Shown: piece after piece, positions 1 to 54,030 of the stretch
How positions within the stretch are numbered: the first letter of the stretch is position 1
Layout: each line of letters starts with the position of its first letter
From: Escherichia phage BSBP01
Sequence record: PQ231202.1
DNA: 54,030 nucleotides
Strand: one strand, 5' to 3'
Position numbers and translations under genes: made by a program
Notes under the pieces: model-generated
What the model saw: the letters and a program-made list of their open reading frames with translations, nothing else
Told to the model about the DNA's origin: nothing
Database searches by the model: none

Positions 1-127
1 TCGGGATGAGGAGTAACCCAAATAAAAGCCTGAACTTTCTTTCTGCACAACACAATCAGCGCAACTAAGCCGTATCGCTACGGTATGCCAGACGCTCTCT
101 TGAGCCTTTTGAACAGAGGCATAACTG
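1..127. repeat. Exact 127-bp direct repeat of 53904-54030 (terminal redundancy or circular-assembly overlap)
   Basis: First 127 nt are identical to the last 127 nt of the window. Confidence 0.9.
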
Positions 128-749
128 TTGGAGGTAAATTGGCGGATTCGGTGAACTCCACGTTCACAATTACACAGTCGGCCTCGGATGCTTCATCCCT
201 ACCCCATCGTGCAGGTTTAATTAACTCTACGAATCCATTGAATTTGGTGACCGATACGTTGGTCAGACGCTGTGGCCTTTACGCGGCCAACGTGCCATTA
301 ATGCTGGCAAGACAGAGCTAACGTTCTCAAGCACTTTGGCGAGGATGTTCTCGGACACTGTTTTAGGAAGTGACCACCTGAACGTCTCGTGTTCATTACG
401 TTGACTTTACGGAGTCATCGGAGCTTCGTTCTCAAGCACGCCGTTTTCTTCTTTGGCCGGAGTCAAGCCGCAAGCCTTTGTCTCGGTGGACTAACCTTCT
501 CACACTAACGATGTGTAGCGGGACGTTCCAATCCTAGGAAGCAGCAATTTTAATTGCTATGCCCAGAGCAATTTGCAGGTTTGTTTGAGTTGGAGTCCTG
601 CTTCCAAACGCATGGGCTTACACCATCATCACAACAAGTTGCTAGAGTCTCGTTATTTAAAGTCGCGCACTCCCTCGACTATGATATACGTGTATTTAAA
701 GTCCCGTACCGGACTGCCAAATGAAATGCGATGGCGAGCATTTGTTCAC

Positions 750-959
750 TCACTGTCGGGTAAGTTTGGAACACTTTTGTGCCCACGTTTCATTGTGGAC
801 TAAAATCTGTGTTTTGGTTTCGCGTGACAAAACTTTCACTTCTGCAACATCCAAATAGATTGGTTGTGCAATTAAGCAATAATCACTTACGAACCCACTT
901 TGAGAGCAACTCACTATCGACATTGCTATCAGAACTGCTAGACACTTCTTTCTGAACAT
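750..959 (-). CDS. Putative o-spanin (outer-membrane lipoprotein), overlapped with the i-spanin in another frame
   Basis: ATG at 959 inside ORF 750..1076; N-terminus MFRKKCLAVLIAMSIVSC has a lipobox (IVS-C); short Cys-containing mature part. Confidence 0.45.
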   Translation of the reverse strand: MFRKKCLAVLIAMSIVSCSQSGFVSDYCLIAQPIYLDVAEVKVLSRETKTQILVHNETWAQKCSKLTRQ

Positions 960-1119
960 GCGTTTTAATCTCGATAGATTCTTTAATGGAATCGAATTGC
1001 TTCTCTGTGGCTTCCTGACGCTCCTCGGCTTTGCCTGAGCTTTTGCCTTTGAGGAACACTGCAATAATAATACCAAATGCAGTCAGGACGCCAAGAACTA
1101 TTGATTTAAGCTGTTGCAT
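883..1119 (-). CDS. Putative i-spanin-like type II membrane protein
   Basis: ATG start with AAGGTGA Shine-Dalgarno upstream; single N-terminal TM segment then charged periplasmic domain; o-spanin start embedded in it. Confidence 0.4.
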   Translation of the reverse strand: MQQLKSIVLGVLTAFGIIIAVFLKGKSSGKAEERQEATEKQFDSIKESIEIKTHVQKEVSSSSDSNVDSELLSKWVRK

Positions 1120-1831
1120 AAATCACCTTAGATGGCGCACGCACCACTTGAGCAGTCGTTGTCGCCAGCACCAGGAACGATTGCTTCTTCGTCCTGCTTT
1201 TTCTTGAGTTCTTCAATTGCTTCTTCGGCAGCACCGAAGTCTAAATTATCAAGTGCATCAAAATCCATGAGGACTCCAGTGTTGCGGGTTATTAAAAATA
1301 GCCCAGAGCCGTTATGCAGATATTAACAATTGTCTGCGAACGGGCTGGGCTTGGTAAGGTGGGGGGGTTTTGATAACGCAGGTTTTCCCGAACTGCGAGG
1401 CTTGTAGCAAGACAGCCGCATTACTTTGCGAATGCCAGCAGGATTGATAGTCCGACCGTCTTTGCTTAGGCAACCTGATTTAATCTACCTTTGTAGATAC
1501 CATCGGTTAGAGCAGTTTATTTCCATGCTAAGGGCAACTCACTTTAAATGAATTAAGTTTGTACTCTGTCACACTGCATCGCCCAGGTGTGCAGCCTAAG
1601 GTTGTCGGTTCATCGCAGAATACAAATTAATTATTGCTCCGATTTATTAATCACATCTCGAAGCCACAATGCGCCAAATTTGGTTACGTGGGATTGGAAG
1701 ACCACGGAGAGGACTTAAATTTAATTAAGCCGCAACTCGCATTTCAGAATCATTTGCACTTGTGTTTAAATGAATAAAACAGTCGCAATAACTCCAGGCA
1801 GTTTAGGCCCGTCGTAAGACTCAGAAAACTA

Positions 1832-1890
1832 CTTCAATAACACCACTCGTAAGTAATGTTATTGAAGCCCACTCTTCCTTTCAGAGTGGG
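1832..1890 (-). terminator. Two tandem perfect hairpins (10-bp and 8-bp stems) followed by a U-rich tract on the minus strand
   Basis: cttcaataac..gttattgaag and cccactct..agagtggg inverted repeats, about 77 nt downstream of the stop of gene 1967..2305. Confidence 0.3.
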
Positions 1891-1966
1891 TTCAAGGCAG
1901 CACCGGAAAACTTCCAGTGCATGCCAGATCGATTTAGCCTAGTCTCTCAAGTTTGCCATCGGCAAC

Positions 1967-2305
1967 TTAGAATACCGGAGCTTCTTCAACAGCAGCTTCA
2001 GCAGCTTCTGCAACACTTGCGTCAGCAACTTTAGCTTCTTTCGGAGTATCGAACTTAGTACGCTCAACTTCCGGCTCACCAGATTCAACCCACGGCAGGT
2101 AGAATGCCAGGAACTGCTCGATGGTGTTCTTCTGCATGGAGCGAGAACGGTCGATAGCGCCAACGGTGTTCAGGTACGCTTCGGCAGCTTTCTCAATTTT
2201 AGCACCGTTTTCCAGTTTGAAGTCATGTGCATTACACTCTGCTTCGGTCAGGAACAGGGAACCATCGTTAGCTTCGTACTGAGTTACGGTTACAATCTTA
2301 GCCAT
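1967..2305 (-). CDS. Hypothetical protein with acidic Ala/Glu-rich C-terminus ending in Phe
   Basis: 112-aa ORF; C-terminus AEAAEAAVEEAPVF. Confidence 0.55.
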   Translation of the reverse strand: MAKIVTVTQYEANDGSLFLTEAECNAHDFKLENGAKIEKAAEAYLNTVGAIDRSRSMQKNTIEQFLAFYLPWVESGEPEVERTKFDTPKEAKVADASVAEAAEAAVEEAPVF

Positions 2306-2380
2306 TTGTATATACCTTATATTGAATAGTTTTGCACGCCACGGTGACGTGACTTAGATAAAATTAAAGAGCCTTTCTCT

Positions 2381-2406
2381 TTCCACATCCAACTAATGTT
2401 TCAGAA
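2381..2406 (-). promoter_or_regulatory. Copy 1 of conserved intergenic motif (plus-strand TTCAnnTCCAACTAATGT), candidate phage RNAP promoter
   Basis: Near-identical about 20-bp element recurs 7 times, always intergenic and in the same orientation upstream of minus-strand genes. Confidence 0.3.
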
Positions 2407-3104: not shown

Positions 3105-3431
3105 TTAGTGGCCTTGTAGGATACGTTTGTTCGCAGTTTCTGCGTCGATTCCCAAATCAACTAATGTCACCAAGCACTGCGAAATCCGCTCTTGCGCAGC
3201 TTTCTCCAGAATTTGGTATTTTTCGTTGTCAACGCCTAACACATTCTTGGCATGAATGAGTGTAGCCATTAGACCATGACCCAAAGCAACAGCTTGCATT
3301 GCCTGGAGTTCAAAGTTAATTGTGATGCCAGCGAGTTCGTGCTCTTTCTGGATAATCTCAATCAACTCTTCTTTAGATTTGTCTTGTAAGTTCAAAATGG
3401 AACTCCGTAAACTGGTTGGTTTGTTGTCCAT
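3105..3431 (-). CDS. Hypothetical protein
   Basis: 108-aa ORF in the co-directional gene array. Confidence 0.5.
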   Translation of the reverse strand: MDNKPTSLRSSILNLQDKSKEELIEIIQKEHELAGITINFELQAMQAVALGHGLMATLIHAKNVLGVDNEKYQILEKAAQERISQCLVTLVDLGIDAETANKRILQGH

Positions 3432-3712
3432 TCGCGGGTTGCGATTTGCATGGACTTGTTTGGGCCGCAGTAGAAATATTTCTTAACTTCTGCAAGGGTG
3501 TATTTAGCACTACATTCGAGTATATCTTTGAAAGTGTGCTTCCAGAACCCGTCCTTCTCAGAAATTCTTACGGTGAAGTTGTTGGTCCCGTTGTAATACC
3601 AACGCCCACCAACGAGAACGAAGTGGATTGTTTCTTCCTCCTCTTCCCCACTTGGCGAAGACATTAGCACATTTCTTAACGTCAAAACTTTAGCAGAATG
3701 CTTACGAACCAT
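3392..3712 (-). CDS. Hypothetical protein
   Basis: ORF 3392..3736 with start moved to the internal Met to limit overlap. Confidence 0.45.
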   Translation of the reverse strand: MVRKHSAKVLTLRNVLMSSPSGEEEEETIHFVLVGGRWYYNGTNNFTVRISEKDGFWKHTFKDILECSAKYTLAEVKKYFYCGPNKSMQIATREWTTNQPVYGVPF

Positions 3713-5846: not shown

Positions 5847-6260
5847 TTATGCTGGAAGTTCGAAGTGCGGCATATCAATCAGCTTCTTCTTACCTGGTGC
5901 AAGTGGTGGATACGGCTGATTTTCATCAATACGGCTCCAGTTCCCACCCCAACGAATGGTAATTCCAAGCTCTTTTGCAGCTTTGAACATGTGATGAGCT
6001 AAAACTTTGAATCGTTCGAGGTCATTCCAGTCAATTGGATATGGTGCAATGTCCAAAGCGTTACCAGACATGTGTCGGCTTACTGAAACTTTGGTTGCAC
6101 CTTGTTTTAACAGTTCTTGTTGACGTTCATAAGAGCGTAAACCTTCCAAAACAGTCACATCAAAAGGCATGGTTTCACATGCCCGTTTGAAAACTGCAAC
6201 TAATGAAGGATTTACTCCCTTAAGTCGGTCTAAAGAACGTTGACCGAGCTTAACATTCAT
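5847..6260 (-). CDS. L-alanyl-D-glutamate peptidase (M15 family) endolysin-type enzyme
   Basis: [11 protein letters not shown] and DMPHFE zinc-ligand motifs typical of M15 peptidases such as the T5 endolysin. Confidence 0.75.
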
Positions 6261-13361: not shown

Positions 13362-15302
13362 TTATTGACAGAAGTAGTAAGCGTGTTCGCTCATCAGAAG
13401 CTCTTCGGTTACGATGTTCTCATGATACATCTGAATGCCACCGAGTTGCTTAGACAGATTCTCGAATTGATTGTTGGTTACGAAGATTTCAACATATGCT
13501 GCACGAATAACTTCCATCATACGTGGAGCATCTGCCAAACAGCAACGGAAACAATCGTGGATTGAAGTGAAACCACGAAGACCAGCTTCTTTAGCTTTAA
13601 CAGCAACAGTACGAGCAACCAATGCGTCGATACCTTGAATATAGTTGACTACGAAAGTACGCTTGAATTCCTCTTTAGTAGGATTGGATTCACGAATGGT
13701 CCAAGGTTTCTCTTCCTGAATCTGGCCAAAGATAACACGAGTTTGAGAGTCAACACGAATGCTGAATGCATCACAGATTTCACGAGATGGGAAGCAAGGC
13801 TTCATTACAACCTGACCATCAGTGTGCTTATAGGTGATGTATTCCTTGTTAAGCTCAACACAACGTTGATATGCAGCATCAGCAGCTTTCTCAATGAACA
13901 TGTTAATCTTAGCACCCAATGCGTTATGGATTGCTTCCACACACAGTTCAGCAAATGCCTCAGCCTTCTCAACTGGAATCTGAAGAGATGCAGTCATGTA
14001 AGAGATAAAGTCAGAAGAACCAGTTAAAGCAGCTTTACCACCACCATACTGAATAGCCATGTATGGAGTTTTGATAAACTTACGACCAGCTTTCGGATTC
14101 AAGAACTCTTCCATGATTTCAACAGAAGGTTTCATTGAAGACTTATCCAGCAGCTTCAACAGTTCACGAAGACTCAACTGGTATGGGTCAGATGCTTTAG
14201 TCTCAGAATCAACCAGACCTGTTGCACGAGCCATTTCCATGTTACCAGCAATGAATGCCAGATACTGAGTACCAGAACATTTAGCATCTAAGCCAAAGCC
14301 TACACGAGAATCGCATTCACCTGTAGTCTCAAACTTGAACCAATCCAGAGCCAGACGAACATAAGTGAATGGCTTAGAAGGACGTTCAGCTTTAGGCATG
14401 TTCATCATGCGAGCAAGTGAACCAGCTGGATTCTGAGCAACATAAGTTAAACGTTTAGCAGAGCACCAGTCTCCACCAGAAATGTCTTCCAGCTCAGCCA
14501 TGAACATGTTGTATGCAATGGTAGTAGAACCATCTTCGTTAAACTTCTTAACGATGTTCTCAACATTGTGAGAATACAAGCAACGAGCAAAGTCAGAGGA
14601 TTGTGGGTTAGGACCAGCACATGCTACATGATACAGGCGACCACGGTTATCAGCAAAGTAGTCAGAATAGAGTGTATCCTGAGTCATCATTGCTACAGCA
14701 TTGTTCCAAACATGGAGTTCAGTCTGGATTGCTTCTGGCATCTGCAAGCCACCATAAGTACGTTGTTCAAGCATGGACTGGATGATGCGAACCATCTCAG
14801 TCTCCACATGGTACTCAGTATCTTGCAGGAATTCGATTGCAGCTTTCAGAGTTTTGGATGGCTTAACTTTGCCACCTTTAACGAAAGGCTTGCGACGAGA
14901 TTCAGATGTAACACGCTCAGTGAATGGCACTGCTGTGTCTTTGGTTGTAACCAGTTCAACCCATGTGTCAGTTTGTTGGAATGACTTGTCTTCGTTCATG
15001 GTGATGAAGCCGAAGTGCTTAGCCAGACCAATGAGGTTGATAGCTGGGTCAACATAGTGCATTGCTTTCAAATCGTTGTTGTAGCGATTGGCATCAGCAA
15101 TAGAAGCAGAAGCCAGCTCAACCATCGCAATGGCAGGAACAACATCATCACGTGTGAAAGACGTCATCATCTTGAATATGGCTAAGGCAGCAATAGCACA
15201 AGTCTGAGGCTGCATATAGTTCTGCTTCTCTTTGGCACGGTATACCAGAGCAGTGATAGCAGGAACAACAGATTTGATAGTTTGAGTGGTGATAGTAGTC
15301 AT
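13362..15302 (-). CDS. Single-subunit T7-like DNA-dependent RNA polymerase, N-terminally minimal (646 aa)
   Basis: Motif A LDAKCSGTQY, motif B RKFIKTPYMAIQYGGG, motif C TSIHDCF and a VNYIQGID segment align to T7 RNAP catalytic motifs. Confidence 0.8.
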   Translation of the reverse strand: MTTITTQTIKSVVPAITALVYRAKEKQNYMQPQTCAIAALAIFKMMTSFTRDDVVPAIAMVELASASIADANRYNNDLKAMHYVDPAINLIGLAKHFGFITMNEDKSFQQTDTWVELVTTKDTAVPFTERVTSESRRKPFVKGGKVKPSKTLKAAIEFLQDTEYHVETEMVRIIQSMLEQRTYGGLQMPEAIQTELHVWNNAVAMMTQDTLYSDYFADNRGRLYHVACAGPNPQSSDFARCLYSHNVENIVKKFNEDGSTTIAYNMFMAELEDISGGDWCSAKRLTYVAQNPAGSLARMMNMPKAERPSKPFTYVRLALDWFKFETTGECDSRVGFGLDAKCSGTQYLAFIAGNMEMARATGLVDSETKASDPYQLSLRELLKLLDKSSMKPSVEIMEEFLNPKAGRKFIKTPYMAIQYGGGKAALTGSSDFISYMTASLQIPVEKAEAFAELCVEAIHNALGAKINMFIEKAADAAYQRCVELNKEYITYKHTDGQVVMKPCFPSREICDAFSIRVDSQTRVIFGQIQEEKPWTIRESNPTKEEFKRTFVVNYIQGIDALVARTVAVKAKEAGLRGFTSIHDCFRCCLADAPRMMEVIRAAYVEIFVTNNQFENLSKQLGGIQMYHENIVTEELLMSEHAYYFCQ

Positions 15303-15925: not shown

Positions 15926-17026
15926 TCATAGTTCAAATCCGCCTAGAGCATTGGTGTCAACTTCGGAGTCAATCTGCCCAACAAGGTACGAACTAATCTC
16001 CGTTTCTTGTGGAGCTACTTGTACAGCATCCGAATTCAACCATGCGTTAATCCAAGGAATCGGGTTAGTAGCACCTTTGAATGGAGCATCCAATCCAACT
16101 GCTTGCATACGAATATTCGTGATATATTCCACATATCCGCACAGAATTTGCTTGTTTAAGCCAATCATTGAGCCATCTTTGAACAAATAATCAGCCCAAT
16201 CTTTCTCTTGTTGGGCCACATTTTCGAACATTATTTGGCATTCTTGACGGCATTCTTTAGCAATTTCAGCCATTTCTGGGTCATCAACACCACTTGCAAG
16301 AAGGTTCAGCATGTGCTGAGTTCCGGTCAAATGGAGTGCTTCATCACGAGCAATTAAGCGAATAATCTTGGCATTTCCTTCCATTAACTTGCGTTCAGCG
16401 AAGGCAAATGAGCAAGCAAAGCTAACATAGAAGCGGATTGCTTCCAGTGCATTAATGGACATGAGGCATAAATACAGCTTCTTCTTAAGCTCACGAAGAG
16501 AAACTTTATCTTCATGCAGATGCCACATGGAAGTCAGATGTTGAAGCTCGTCATAATATTGGGAGATACCAATTGCACGCATTTTAATGTGCTCATTCTC
16601 CACAATTTCATCGAAAATTACGCTTGGGTCTGTAACAATGTTACGGATAATATGCGTGTAAGAACGAGAGTGAATTGTCTCTGAGAATGACCAAGTTTCA
16701 ATCCAAGTTTCCAGCTCAGGAATGCTCACAATTGGAAGCAAAACTGTAGTTGGTCCACGTCCCTGAATGGAATCAAGCAGGATTTGGTATCGTAAATTGC
16801 TAGTGAAGATGTGCTTCTCGCATTCAGGCAGACCAGCATAGTCAATTCTGTCCTGGCTAACATCAACCTCCTCAGGTCGCCAAAAGAAAGATAACTGCTT
16901 CTCGATTAACTTCTCGAAGATGCTGTACTTCTGTTGGTCATATCGAGCAACATTAACGTTCTGGCCAAAGAACATTGGCTCTAGTAGTTGGTTATTCTTG
17001 GTTTGTGAAAAGGTAGTGTAAGCCAT
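15926..17026 (-). CDS. nrdB: Class Ia ribonucleotide reductase small subunit
   Basis: Very close to enterobacterial NrdB along its length ([37 protein letters not shown]..); no nrdA found in the window. Confidence 0.9.
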
Positions 17027-17580
17027 TACAGATTTCCTAGATACTCATAGAATTTATGGCCACCATAACGTCCCAAACCTTTAACATTCTTGAAGTTGCA
17101 CTTCTCCGATGCTGTACAAAAGTGGGTTGCTTTGGTGACAGAGGGTTGATTAAATAGTACAAAAGATATTGCAACATTAATAGTGTCCAGAACTTGTTGT
17201 TGTTCTGTGGCATAATTAATCTTTGCTACATGCTTCCATTGAGCATTCTTCTTCTTTGCTTCTCGTGTCCATGCAAATTGGTTGCGTTGATAGACAACAT
17301 CACAAACGGTGTTAGCGAATGGCTTCCCGAACTCAGTTCTATTACGGACGACATTAGCTACCAGAATCTTTCCATGTTTGTCTTCTCCGCGAGCTTCATA
17401 CCAGATAACTTTAGTGTAGCATTCTAGCTCTTTGCGTTGTGAAGAAGATAGTTTCAGACTTCCATTTAAATAAGAGTGACTTGCAAAATCTGTAATAGCA
17501 GAATTCACTGCCCCAACCGAAGCTGGGGCGTTGATGTGAACTAAAGCTGTCAGAAGTGCAAGGACTTTGAATGATAACAT
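17026..17580 (-). CDS. Secreted SleB/CwlJ-type cell-wall hydrolase, probable endolysin
   Basis: N-terminal signal-like segment; [17 protein letters not shown] motif of the Hydrolase_2 family; immediately downstream of the holin. Confidence 0.7.
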
Positions 17581-17597: not shown

Positions 17598-17939
17598 TCA
17601 TCGTGCCTTCTTGAACCACGTCAAAGGATTAAGTTGTTTGATTGCGCCAGAGAAACTTTCCCTGACAGTTGTGATAATGAGGTTGGCACCAATGACACCA
17701 ATCACAATAGCTAACACCAACTGCATAGTGACGTTAGTTGTGAAAGTTTCAAATGTACCTGCGACCTGAAATGCAAACAGCCCGATTAAGCTACATAGCG
17801 TCGCATCCAGCAACGCTTTGCTTAAGCCCTCACTCTCATATGCACCACGGATTAAAGCCGTCAGGCCAGCCAACAGTCCATGCCAAACGCCGTATTGGTG
17901 CATTGCTTCCCAAATCATCTGGAAAGTTTGTCTATCCAT
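17598..17939 (-). CDS. Putative holin
   Basis: 113 aa, three predicted TM segments, basic C-terminus, directly upstream of the hydrolase. Confidence 0.55.
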   Translation of the reverse strand: MDRQTFQMIWEAMHQYGVWHGLLAGLTALIRGAYESEGLSKALLDATLCSLIGLFAFQVAGTFETFTTNVTMQLVLAIVIGVIGANLIITTVRESFSGAIKQLNPLTWFKKAR

Positions 17940-50518: not shown

Positions 50519-52282
50519 TTATTGATGTGGACCGTTCTTCTTAGTAAGCTGAACAATCTCTTTGGTTTCGAACAGCGAGTCATCCCAAGAACGTTGAATA
50601 ATTCGACCAGATTCGGTGTCATAATACGTCTTGAAGCCTTCTGTTTTACCACTCTTACGAGCTTTGATGGAACGAATAATAGAACAGTTTGGGTCAACTG
50701 CCTGGCTATTACGCTCAAAGCCGAACATACCATGAGAATATTTAGCAGCAGCACGTGAGCCAGTAAAGTCTGACTTCTTGATACGTCCACCATCTTCATG
50801 AGGTCGCTGACCTTTTGCAACAGGGTTAAGGTGCGACAGAATATTTACATGGAACTGATATTGGTCTGCCAGCTTAGTAATATCTGCATACAGCTTACCC
50901 AAGAAGTCGTTCTTCTCTGAGGCAGAAATCCCTTCCGATAAGTAGGTTAAGTTATCAAGGACAAACATATCAATGTCTGGTCCAATCTGACGAAGAATCG
51001 TCTTTAACCCATCCCAGGTTTCATAAGGGTCTTCTCCAGCTTGCTTGCGGTCCCAAATCTCCATGTTACGAAGCATCTTCGCAGCAGTTTGACGGAACTT
51101 AGCTTCATCATATCGAGGGTCTTCACGAGTAAACGCAGGTTCCCAATATGGCAAGTTGTCATTAAGGCCAGCCATTCGGCGCAATGTTTCTGTAGGAGTT
51201 TCCTCCATGTATGCAGTAAACACTCCCCAATCGTGCTTGGTAATGTTGTGATGCACAATCTGACGGGACAGCGTAGTTTTACCACCACCTTCTGCACCAC
51301 CGATTGTAATAACTTCGGCTCGACGTTGACCAAACATTAAGTCGGTTAACTTTGGCCAAGGATAGTCCACACCCTGTTCAACCTCGTCATCAAGCTCTTC
51401 CATAAGAAGTTCTTTGTTGACAAGTGCTGTAGGCAGAGGACGAGCCGCACGGAACACAACAGCAGATTGAGTAGCTTTGAGCAAGCCACGCTTCAAACAA
51501 TCGTTGGCATCGTTAGCTGGAAGTGTTGCAATCATTGCACCAGGCAACAATCGACACGCTTCTTTTGCAGCTTTACGTCCAGGTTCGTCATCATCAAATA
51601 CGATAACAACCTGTTCCCAACGTTGCTTAATTTCTTCTGCAACTGGTGACAAACATTTGTGTACGGAATCACTCCCGTCACTCAAACTAATTACAGCAAA
51701 ATCCAAATCTTCATATGCACCACCACGGTTCATAGTCTTGAGGATTTGACGCAATGCGATACAGTCTTCTTCACCTTCAGTGATGAACAATGTCTTACCG
51801 CCAATTGCTTTTGCAGCCAACCAGTTGTAGGGTTCGTTGCCTTGTGTATCGCCAACAGACCACATAACTTTCTTGTTCAGAAGTTTAATCTTCCAACGAA
51901 CAAGTTTGCCATTTTTGGTGTAGCCATGTGCCAGAGCATTTGGAGTCTTCCCATCATACTCTGAATACAGAAGTCGAACACCAGCAGCTTTCCAGAATTC
52001 TGGTTCGATGCTGCGATGGGTTAAATCAAACGGAGGACAAGCAGTGATTTCATCAACTTCTTCCTGAATTTCTTCTGGAGTCTTGACTTTAATCTCTGGA
52101 ATGTTCTCCGGATTATTGCCATAAGGATTTGGTACTAGAACGCCACACGCAAAGCAGTAACCAGAGAAGTTCTTATTACCAGCTTCATCGACATTCAACC
52201 AAACCTGTAAAGACTTGCCAGATGTGGATTTACAGTCTGGTACATCGTGCTTAATCTTAGCCACACATTGCTTGACGTTCAT
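50519..52282 (-). CDS. Bifunctional DNA primase-helicase (T7 gp4-like)
   Basis: N-terminal zinc finger, TOPRIM FITEGEEDCIAL and VFDDDEPG, helicase P-loop GGAEGGGKTT. Confidence 0.85.
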   Translation of the reverse strand: MNVKQCVAKIKHDVPDCKSTSGKSLQVWLNVDEAGNKNFSGYCFACGVLVPNPYGNNPENIPEIKVKTPEEIQEEVDEITACPPFDLTHRSIEPEFWKAAGVRLLYSEYDGKTPNALAHGYTKNGKLVRWKIKLLNKKVMWSVGDTQGNEPYNWLAAKAIGGKTLFITEGEEDCIALRQILKTMNRGGAYEDLDFAVISLSDGSDSVHKCLSPVAEEIKQRWEQVVIVFDDDEPGRKAAKEACRLLPGAMIATLPANDANDCLKRGLLKATQSAVVFRAARPLPTALVNKELLMEELDDEVEQGVDYPWPKLTDLMFGQRRAEVITIGGAEGGGKTTLSRQIVHHNITKHDWGVFTAYMEETPTETLRRMAGLNDNLPYWEPAFTREDPRYDEAKFRQTAAKMLRNMEIWDRKQAGEDPYETWDGLKTILRQIGPDIDMFVLDNLTYLSEGISASEKNDFLGKLYADITKLADQYQFHVNILSHLNPVAKGQRPHEDGGRIKKSDFTGSRAAAKYSHGMFGFERNSQAVDPNCSIIRSIKARKSGKTEGFKTYYDTESGRIIQRSWDDSLFETKEIVQLTKKNGPHQ

Positions 52283-52286
52283 TTAT

Positions 52287-52967
52287 TTATTCCTGGTTGG
52301 TCAGAGCCTTCCAACAAATTGGGAATAGTTCTGACATGATTTTATTCACTTCTTCCGCAAACAAGCGAACTTCATATTGCGCATGTTCGGAGGAACGTTG
52401 ATTATACATAGATGCCCAGCCATAAAGTGAGCCAGTCCAAATCCATTCAGTCATCATGGATTGTGGAAGAACCATGCGAGCTTGCTCTGGGGCAATCCCC
52501 AAACCAATTAACGTTTCATACTCTGCGATGCAAGCCTTGTTATAGCTTTCCATGCGATAATGAATATCGTCAGCAAAATCTTGTGGCAACGGTTGTGCAG
52601 TCTGAGTCATCAACTTTTCAGGACGACCAAATACAACACCTGGAACAAAGCATTCAATAGAGATTGCTTCGCCATCTTTGTAACGACGGCTAACCTCATT
52701 CCAACTAAAGCCAGTTTGATGTTTGCCAAGCTGACGTGCAATGAAGATTGGAGCTTTGCAACGCAATGTTACCTGTGCATGACGGAACGGCGTAATGTGT
52801 TTATGCTTTGCAAGAAACTCAATCAGCTTCTCGTCACGTAAAGATATTTCATGTGACTCTGCACCATAAGAAACTCGTGCAGCATTAACAGTTGTGAGGT
52901 CGCTGCCCATTGAATCTACTAATGTTGCGGTTATTTGTGGCTTAACCATTATTTGCGTATTCTCCAT
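52287..52967 (-). CDS. thyX: Flavin-dependent thymidylate synthase ThyX-like
   Basis: Aligns by eye along its length to ThyX; RHR position reads KHQ. Confidence 0.7.
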   Translation of the reverse strand: MENTQIMVKPQITATLVDSMGSDLTTVNAARVSYGAESHEISLRDEKLIEFLAKHKHITPFRHAQVTLRCKAPIFIARQLGKHQTGFSWNEVSRRYKDGEAISIECFVPGVVFGRPEKLMTQTAQPLPQDFADDIHYRMESYNKACIAEYETLIGLGIAPEQARMVLPQSMMTEWIWTGSLYGWASMYNQRSSEHAQYEVRLFAEEVNKIMSELFPICWKALTNQE

Positions 52968-53394: not shown

Positions 53395-53453
53395 TGTTTG
53401 CTCTCCGGTTCATATGGTGGGAGATAAATTAGCTCCGCACCATGATAATGGTA

Positions 53454-53684
53454 TTATTTTAATGACGCCTGAATTTCTTTCATAGACGCATTTAGTACAG
53501 AACGCTTTTCATATTCGCGTTGATTGTACGTGTTTGTCAGTGCTTCCGCAGCTTCTATTGACAAGATTGCAAAACCGCCAAAGGCATTGCGAACTTCTTC
53601 AATATCCATGTGCAGGACTTCACTTGTGATTTGGCTGGCTATTACGGCCTTATAAATCTCTTCGGCAATTTCAGCAGTTTTCAT
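53454..53684 (-). CDS. Hypothetical protein
   Basis: 76-aa ORF, first gene after the junction non-coding region. Confidence 0.4.
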   Translation of the reverse strand: MKTAEIAEEIYKAVIASQITSEVLHMDIEEVRNAFGGFAILSIEAAEALTNTYNQREYEKRSVLNASMKEIQASLK

Positions 53685-53880
53685 GTTTCTCTCCAGTTAA
53701 AATTTAAGTAAGTGCCCTGAGTATTACAAAACACTTATTAAATTTGATTCGAACCGCCCAAGTGAATCAGCCTTGTTTATGGGGACCATCGGGGAAAAGT
53801 ATAAACCCGCTTAATGCTCGCATCATGTTTGAACATTAAGAACCCTCGACTTGCATATTTCATGTGTATAGGAACATAGT

Positions 53881-53897
53881 CTGGATTTTGAATCCAG
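53881..53897. other. Perfect hairpin (7-bp stem CTGGATT/AATCCAG) adjacent to the terminal repeat
   Basis: ctggattttgaatccag. Confidence 0.3.
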
Positions 53898-53903
53898 CTA
53901 ACT

Positions 53904-54030
53904 TCGGGATGAGGAGTAACCCAAATAAAAGCCTGAACTTTCTTTCTGCACAACACAATCAGCGCAACTAAGCCGTATCGCTACGGTATGCCAGACGCTC
54001 TCTTGAGCCTTTTGAACAGAGGCATAACTG
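53904..54030. repeat. Second copy of the 127-bp terminal repeat
   Basis: Identical to 1-127. Confidence 0.9.

Follow-up and report, generated by a model that had tools for sequence, protein, structure and literature searches.

An overlapped two-component spanin pair of the catalogued phiEcoM-GJ1 type, predicted in a Carltongylesvirus coliphage

The manually curated spanin set of Kongari et al. 2018 (PMC6139136) holds the coliphage phiEcoM-GJ1 as a singleton of the overlapped ('ovl') class. SpaninDB places its i-spanin at 14724-14961 and its o-spanin at 14884-15094, with an overlap of 77 and register 1 (PMC6139136), and the supplementary tables give the two products as 78 aa and 69 aa (PMC6139136). 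The periplasmic domain of the i-spanin is described there as 55 residues with 64% helix and one coiled coil at 26-58, and that of the o-spanin as 52 residues with 42% helix and 17% strand (PMC6139136). Across spanin systems, at least one periplasmic cysteine is present in 507 of 528, and the commonest combination, which is also that of T4, is none in the i-spanin and two in the o-spanin (PMC6139136). Omission of the o-spanin from annotation, documented for 196 of the 528 systems, reflects a bias of gene callers (PMC6139136). Papers on the Chaseviridae and on phiEcoM-GJ1 give the spanins as annotations only (PMC13340011, PMC9699118), and we found no experiments on the spanins of the phiEcoM-GJ1-like family in this literature (PMC6139136, PMC13340011, PMC9699118).

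The DNA analysed here is a stretch of 54,030 nt, referred to as the window. A megablast search with positions 600..1400 returned 109 phage records, with Carltongylesvirus of Escherichia, Shigella and Yersinia at the top (91-97% DNA identity), and the best-matching genomes are classified in the genus Carltongylesvirus (Chaseviridae; type phage phiEcoM-GJ1). Proteins of the relative vB_Shi_2KOFFS (2KOFFS) map around the entire window, and the genes for thymidylate synthase (52290..52934) and primase/helicase (50522..52282) lie at its far end. Thus, by its gene map, the window spans the whole genome of a phiEcoM-GJ1-like Carltongylesvirus in circularly permuted form, with its genes on the minus strand. 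The hosts of the related phages (Escherichia, Shigella and Yersinia) are Gram-negative, as is expected for phages with a two-component spanin.

A preliminary description had proposed a spanin-like gene pair near the start of the window, consisting of an ORF at 883..1119 with an ATG, a good Shine-Dalgarno and an N-terminal transmembrane (TM) helix, and of a second frame that starts at ATG 959, encodes a lipoprotein signal with lipobox IVS-C and runs past the first stop to 750 in the overlapped architecture. All of its coordinates proved correct, both genes are on the minus strand, and each of these features was recovered. The first gene, that of the i-spanin, spans 883..1119 (-) including the stop and encodes 78 aa from its ATG, as judged from the ORF and its translation. 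It is preceded by the sequence TAAGGTGATTT; from the upstream sequence and the duplex energy, its Shine-Dalgarno is AAGGTGA (1123..1129, -), located 4 nt 5' of the ATG and with a predicted pairing with the 16S 3' end of -10.2 kcal/mol. Codons 7-23 (1051..1101, -) encode the N-terminal TM helix IVLGVLTAFGIIIAVFL, and these residues are the top 17-residue hydrophobicity window of the protein, with a mean Kyte-Doolittle value of 2.92. After the helix comes a periplasmic domain of 55 hydrophilic residues that is mostly helical and has no cysteine. By this predicted topology, the 78-aa product is a type II inner-membrane protein, with the single N-terminal TM domain and periplasmic C-terminal domain by which Kongari et al. 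2018 recognize an i-spanin.

The i-spanin matches PHROG 1026 "Rz-like spanin" over its full length (residues 1-78, 3.8e-19) and is 94.9% identical to gp31 of phiEcoM-GJ1. Its identity among close relatives is 78-97% (tblastn). Both spanins also have homologues in Erwinia phage Faunus (Faunusvirus), Escherichia phage 4HA13 (Sabourvirus), Pectobacterium phage PM1 (Suwonvirus) and Aeromonas phage phiA050, where identity is 33-40% for the i-spanin and 41-51% for the o-spanin. In all five aligned genera the i-spanin keeps a hydrophobic segment at its N-terminus, followed by an invariant KG.SSGK, and the motif D..D.EL...W.R is invariant at its C-terminus.

The second gene, that of the o-spanin, spans 750..959 (-), from ATG 959 to the stop at 752..750 (included), and encodes 69 aa. 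A predicted signal peptidase II signal occupies 906..959 (-), with n-region MFRKK, h-region CLAVLIAMS and lipobox I-V-S-C; the lipobox corresponds to codons 15-18 at 906..917, and the residue that follows Cys18 is Ser19, not Asp. The N-terminus, MFRKKCLAVLIAMSIVS followed by the cysteine, conforms to the PROSITE PS51257-type rule (Cys18, three K/R within the first seven residues), and the lipobox agrees with the consensus [LVI][ASTVI][GAS]C (PMC6139136). In a rule-based check, the frame thus carries a lipoprotein signal with a lipobox and no Asp at +2. Under the Lol-avoidance rule, a residue other than Asp at +2 leads to sorting to the outer membrane; since Ser stands at this position, the o-spanin is predicted to be sorted there by Lol. 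These features predict an outer-membrane lipoprotein precursor whose mature part, Cys18-Gln69, has 52 residues. Two periplasmic cysteines, Cys28 and Cys63, are present in the o-spanin and none in the i-spanin, so that the o-spanin supplies the at least one periplasmic cysteine looked for in two-component spanins.

The o-spanin matches PHROG 1275 "Rz-like spanin" over residues 1-67 (2e-18) and is 97.1% identical to the phiEcoM-GJ1 frame 14885-15091 (tblastn). In seven diverse homologues, the lipobox Cys18, Y27-C28, P33-I34 and C63 are invariant. Its Shine-Dalgarno is weak (GAG, -3.0 kcal/mol), which we counted against the spanin reading. A longer form of the frame, from TTG 1076, was considered and rejected: a stop codon interrupts this frame 9 codons upstream of ATG 959 in 7 of 10 relatives, which fixes the start codon at that ATG.

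The 3' end of the o-spanin gene differs among relatives. In 2KOFFS an HNH homing-endonuclease gene (3232..3678) is inserted exactly at this end, replacing the last four codons, and the same is found in vB_EcoM_DE15. A 1-nt deletion in one relative (L012) ends the o-spanin right after Cys63-Ser64, and TH25, TH28, TH33, MLP1 and PYps3T match the o-spanin query to residue 66 only, with different C-termini. Given these variable ends, the residues after Cys63 seem dispensable, though other genera keep LTRQ(K).

The i-spanin gene stands first and the o-spanin gene next to it, which is the order of a two-component spanin. The o-spanin frame, at +1 relative to that of the i-spanin, opens within the i-spanin gene and continues 133 nt beyond the i-spanin stop, and this is what defines the overlapped architecture. 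The tblastn matches of both proteins land on the SpaninDB coordinates of phiEcoM-GJ1; by identity, lengths and overlap the pair belongs with that SpaninDB singleton, and by significant profile match its members belong to PHROG 1026 and PHROG 1275. The preliminary description had read the two frames as a spanin pair and had suggested a comparison with curated spanin sets. That reading is supported by the PHROG 1026/1275 matches and by the curated phiEcoM-GJ1 pair, a homologous pair that is indeed listed by Kongari et al. 2018. We conclude from the sequence that the two products are very probably the subunits of an overlapped two-component spanin of a phiEcoM-GJ1-like (Carltongylesvirus) coliphage. 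As such, the pair is an ordinary overlapped two-component spanin that is already catalogued and already known.

Searches of both proteins against Pfam (E <= 0.1) and NCBIfam gave no spanin model and no meaningful family. As a result, the assignment rests on topology, context and the labels of PHROG and SpaninDB, which are themselves bioinformatic. In genome records, the o-spanin is already annotated as "Rz1-like" in 2KOFFS, the Mangalitsa RefSeq, PYps23T and PYps16N and as "o-spanin" in 4HA13; it is unannotated in the phiEcoM-GJ1 RefSeq NC_010106 and in most genome records of relatives. The 78-aa i-spanin is labelled 'endolysin' in PO103-1 and several PYps phages (ON778463.1, MW147598-602) and 'L-alanyl-D-glutamate peptidase' in Pel53 (PP952070.1), a Carltongylesvirus-like genome with a doubtful-looking label as a phage of Staphylococcus hyicus. 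Many GenBank records of the genus miss the o-spanin or mislabel the i-spanin, and the value of the present analysis lies mainly in correct annotation.

With the pair, the lysis set of the phage would be complete, comprising holin, endolysin, i-spanin and o-spanin. The holin, 113 aa (17598..17939, -), is of the lambda-S type (PF05106 Phage_holin_3_1, 2.1e-8) and 100% identical to the product of a 2KOFFS gene annotated holin/anti-holin. The endolysin, 184 aa (17026..17580, -; Hydrolase_2, PF07486, 1.1e-15), is 98.9% identical to the annotated endolysin of 2KOFFS and has a hydrophobic N-terminus. The enzyme is SleB-type, and its N-terminus suggests a secreted or signal-anchor-release endolysin and not a cytoplasmic one. 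A second peptidoglycan peptidase, of the Peptidase_M15_4 family and 137 aa long, is encoded among the early genes at 5850..6260 (-).

We infer the lysis function of the pair from the established spanin model, that of lambda Rz/Rz1 and T4 PseT.3/PseT.2. Under this model, the i-spanin would stay anchored in the inner membrane, and the o-spanin would be lipidated, cut by signal peptidase II and taken by Lol to the inner leaflet of the outer membrane. Their periplasmic domains would then bind each other, through C-terminal, heterotypic contacts, across the peptidoglycan mesh. Because the i-spanin has no cysteine, disulfide-linked homodimers would be expected on the o-spanin side, via the invariant Cys28 and Cys63. 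Once holin and endolysin had cleared the peptidoglycan, the spanin complexes would be free to cluster and collapse, and this collapse would fuse the inner and outer membranes and complete lysis. Synthesis of the spanins early in infection would be harmless, since the complex would remain inactive as long as the wall is intact. At ~107 residues (55 + 52), the combined periplasmic length falls within the reported range of 62-300 but towards its lower end, a point that we counted against the spanin reading. The family is a possible compact model for the minimum length of a spanin complex.

The nearest upstream phage-type promoter is at 2401..2382, with the core CATTAGTTGGA, the same as in putative promoter 7 of GJ1, and no phage-type promoter was found closer to the spanin genes, so the pair is probably made with the middle genes. 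A scan of 1..2400 for sigma-70 promoters and terminators gave sites no more numerous than in shuffled sequence.

The pair is located ~16 kb from the holin and endolysin genes, amid DNA-metabolism genes, and this too was counted against the spanin reading. A position among middle and DNA-metabolism genes, distant from the other lysis genes, would suit a different explanation, namely that the two products are a real membrane protein and a real lipoprotein with a role other than lysis, for example in superinfection exclusion or receptor masking. Outer-membrane lipoproteins with such roles include Llp of T5 and Cor of phi80 and N15. The curated Pfam and NCBIfam spanin models that remained unmatched, and a literature in which we found no lysis phenotype for the family, can be read in the same direction. 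However, the spanin genes of T4 are also unlinked to its holin and endolysin genes (PMC6139136), and i-then-o pairing is strict in all Chaseviridae genera examined. Furthermore, in three unrelated phages, distant o-spanin homologues come directly after the gene for an endolysin or a holin, each with a short TM-anchored partner. These weaker homologues, at 30-39% identity among the matches listed, occur in the lambdoid phage mEp390 (order holin, holin, endolysin, i-spanin, o-spanin), in Pseudomonas phage AF (endolysin, Rz-like, Rz1-like) and in Pantoea phage PdC23 (lysozyme, holin, spanin, spanin). We therefore regard a non-lysis role as improbable.

Even less credible is the proposal that the 78-aa protein is a holin or an antiholin-type lysis regulator, with the lipoprotein acting independently. 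The protein is small and combines a single N-terminal TM helix with a charged C-terminal part, a combination also seen in some holins. However, a lambda-S-type holin (PF05106) is already encoded beside the endolysin, the match of the 78-aa protein to the PHROG i-spanin family covers all of its residues, and in every genus examined its C-terminal motif D..D.EL...W.R is found together with the o-spanin.

Support for two genes in the spanin pair also comes from the dual-coding overlap itself. Frame 0 of these 77 nt (883..959, -) specifies the C-terminus of the i-spanin, HVQKEVSSSSDSNVDSELLSKWVRK, and frame +1 specifies residues 1-25 of the o-spanin. In an alignment of the window with ten relatives, only 1 of 77 columns is variable in the overlap versus 59 of 293 in the flanks (35/160 in the i-only part, 24/133 in the o-only part); the Fisher p-value for these 11 sequences is 6.8e-6, a figure that overstates independence because the aligned sequences are kin. 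When the rearranged 3' end (nt 238-350 of the alignment) is left out, 14 variable columns remain in the o-only part, 9 of them at third codon positions. This is the pattern of variation that two superimposed constrained frames should give. Among the matches listed, the o-spanin frame is intact in about 45 close relatives (tblastn) and is better conserved than the i-spanin, at 95.7-100% versus 78-97% identity. The preliminary description had held that lack of conservation of the embedded frame in related phages would speak against its reading; the frame is kept in all close relatives listed and in four other Chaseviridae-type phages, and the reading is not refuted on this point. In addition, the 69-aa frame is the sole lipoprotein-rule ORF (ATG start, at least 40 aa) in the six frames of the 54,030-nt window, where shuffled sequence gives an expectation of 0.17 such ORFs per genome. 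By its conservation in relatives, the site variation and the fixed start codon, the second frame is a real gene. The contrary view, that only the 78-aa gene is real and the second frame is a chance ORF, may appeal to the missing annotation in most relatives' records and to the weak o-spanin Shine-Dalgarno, but the conservation data already refute it. The product is more conserved than the i-spanin, varies chiefly at third positions in the o-only part and hardly at all in the overlap, and shows 30-51% identity to homologues from other genera and from unrelated phages. It is also the genome's only lipoprotein-rule ORF against the 0.17 expected, and failure to annotate the o-spanin is a gene-caller bias seen in 196 of 528 systems (PMC6139136).

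Upstream of the spanin genes lies an ORF for a very acidic 46-aa product, MDFDALDNLDFGAAEEAIEELKKKQDEEAIVPGAGDNDCSSGACAI (1128..1268, -), which ends 8 nt before the i-spanin ATG and is probably in the same transcription unit as the spanin genes. It adjoins the i-spanin gene in the GJ1-like phages, Faunus (gp31) and phiA050, with a conserved C-terminal motif, NDCxxxxC[KA]I, in all of these, and it is absent from 4HA13 and PM1. No family match was obtained for it in PHROG, Pfam or NCBIfam.

Approximately 27 nt further upstream there is a stable 62-nt hairpin followed by a U-run (1294..1355, read on the minus strand; -23.7 kcal/mol, z = -5.1), whose presence we counted against the spanin reading. 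It is 98% identical to a segment in about 50 Stx-converting and other lambdoid phages, and in the one record checked, that of phage ev099, this segment is just downstream of a cI-like repressor gene. The hairpin is missing from other Carltongylesvirus genomes, where its place is taken by a tRNA-like gene that is annotated tRNA-Arg with a possible intron and that ARAGORN calls tRNA-Leu in GJ1. The hairpin looks like a horizontally acquired terminator. ARAGORN found no tRNA in the whole window, and Rfam gave nothing at the gathering threshold for the whole window or at the E-value threshold for 1..2000 and 53400..54030.

Two stretches near the cluster are poor in ORFs. Downstream of the o-spanin, ~1.1 kb (53685..54030 plus 1..749) contains no convincing ORF and no Rfam or tRNA match; its conservation among relatives is patchy, with short 88-95% identical pieces common to Erwinia phages, and in PM1 the equivalent gap holds a tRNA-Cys. 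The second stretch, 1269..1966, separates the gene at 1967..2305 from the spanin cluster and includes, downstream of that gene, a 17-bp hairpin with a T-rich tail (1831..1868, -).

Comparison with sister genera adds one minor new point: the two genes of their pair overlap by only 4 nt, and another signal peptide is used. The location of the spanin locus is constant across Faunus, 4HA13, PM1 and phiA050, ~1 kb upstream of a small gene, thymidylate synthase (thyX) and primase/helicase. In Faunus, 4HA13 and phiA050, the o-spanin ATG lies over the i-spanin stop (ATGA, 4-nt overlap, +2 frame), with the coding sequence for the signal peptide downstream. The GJ1-like phages have 77 nt of overlap and PM1 has 140 nt, in both cases in the +1 frame. 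In the window, the conserved mature domain (SDYC...) begins exactly at the i-spanin stop, and the part that encodes the conserved i-spanin C-terminus yields the o-spanin signal peptide when read in +1. Read likewise, this part gives MFRKKPLPILIQLSML... in phiA050 and MYRKKLLTVLIQLSI... in Faunus, peptides that are signal-like and have no lipobox. This latent peptide in the separated phages points to replacement of the signal peptide along with the change of architecture, in either direction. We lean slightly towards the view that the GJ1-like overlap may record the replacement of a signal peptide by overprinting, leaving two groups with non-homologous signal peptides on a homologous lipoprotein. 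If so, in the window phage and PM1 the latent +1 peptide would have gained a lipobox cysteine and been fused directly to the mature domain (SDYC...). An origin of the separated arrangement by tandem duplication was rejected, as the similarity between the i-spanin 3' and o-spanin 5' regions was no better than in shuffles for Faunus, 4HA13 and phiA050.

Comparable architecture transitions have been described in three other spanin families (Kongari et al. 2018, PMC6139136). If the overprinting scenario is true, the Chaseviridae would join these few families that cross architecture classes, with a visible intermediate; this would be an evolutionary footnote and not a new mechanism. The family is thus a possible model for interconversion between overlapped and separated spanins.

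Among known systems, the distant relatives in mEp390/HK639, AF and PdC23 share with the window o-spanin the DYC...P motif and a C-terminal cysteine. Each has a short upstream gene annotated as i-spanin (276, 249 and 306 nt, ~82-101 aa), and tblastn detected no similarity of these i-spanins to that of the window at E <= 1e-3. Unlike the window pair, these spanin genes directly follow an endolysin or holin gene.

Lambda Rz/Rz1 resembles the window pair in combining an inner-membrane anchor with an outer-membrane lipoprotein and in its presumed role in membrane fusion. In contrast, the lambda genes are embedded where the window genes are overlapped, and the periplasmic domains encoded in the window are much shorter. 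The cysteines also differ, with C99 and C152 in Rz and C29 in Rz1 (PMC6139136) versus 0 and 2 in the window pair. The Pfam models for lambda Rz and Rz1 (Phage_lysis, Rz1 lipoprotein) gave no match at E <= 0.1. On these comparisons, the relation of the pair to lambda Rz/Rz1 is one of functional analogy and not of membership in the same sequence families.

In T4, PseT.3/PseT.2 agree with the window pair in a cysteine-free i-spanin, two conserved o-spanin cysteines and lack of linkage to holin and endolysin (PMC6139136). The T4 genes are 'separated' by database criteria, whereas those of the window are overlapped, and no sequence similarity between the two pairs was found. The prototype of the overlapped architecture is P2 LysB/LysC, in which, as in the window, the o-spanin starts inside the i-spanin gene, in a different frame, and ends beyond it (PMC6139136). 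P2 was absent among the tblastn matches listed for the window spanins. The P2 pair is inside a lysis cassette (PMC6139136), and the window pair is ~16 kb from its holin and endolysin genes. The closest described system remains phiEcoM-GJ1, whose pair is the same in its lengths (78/69 aa), its 77-nt +1 overlap and its genomic position, with 94.9%/97.1% identity. The two phages differ here by a few substitutions and by the replacement of the upstream tRNA-like gene of GJ1 with the 62-nt hairpin in the window.
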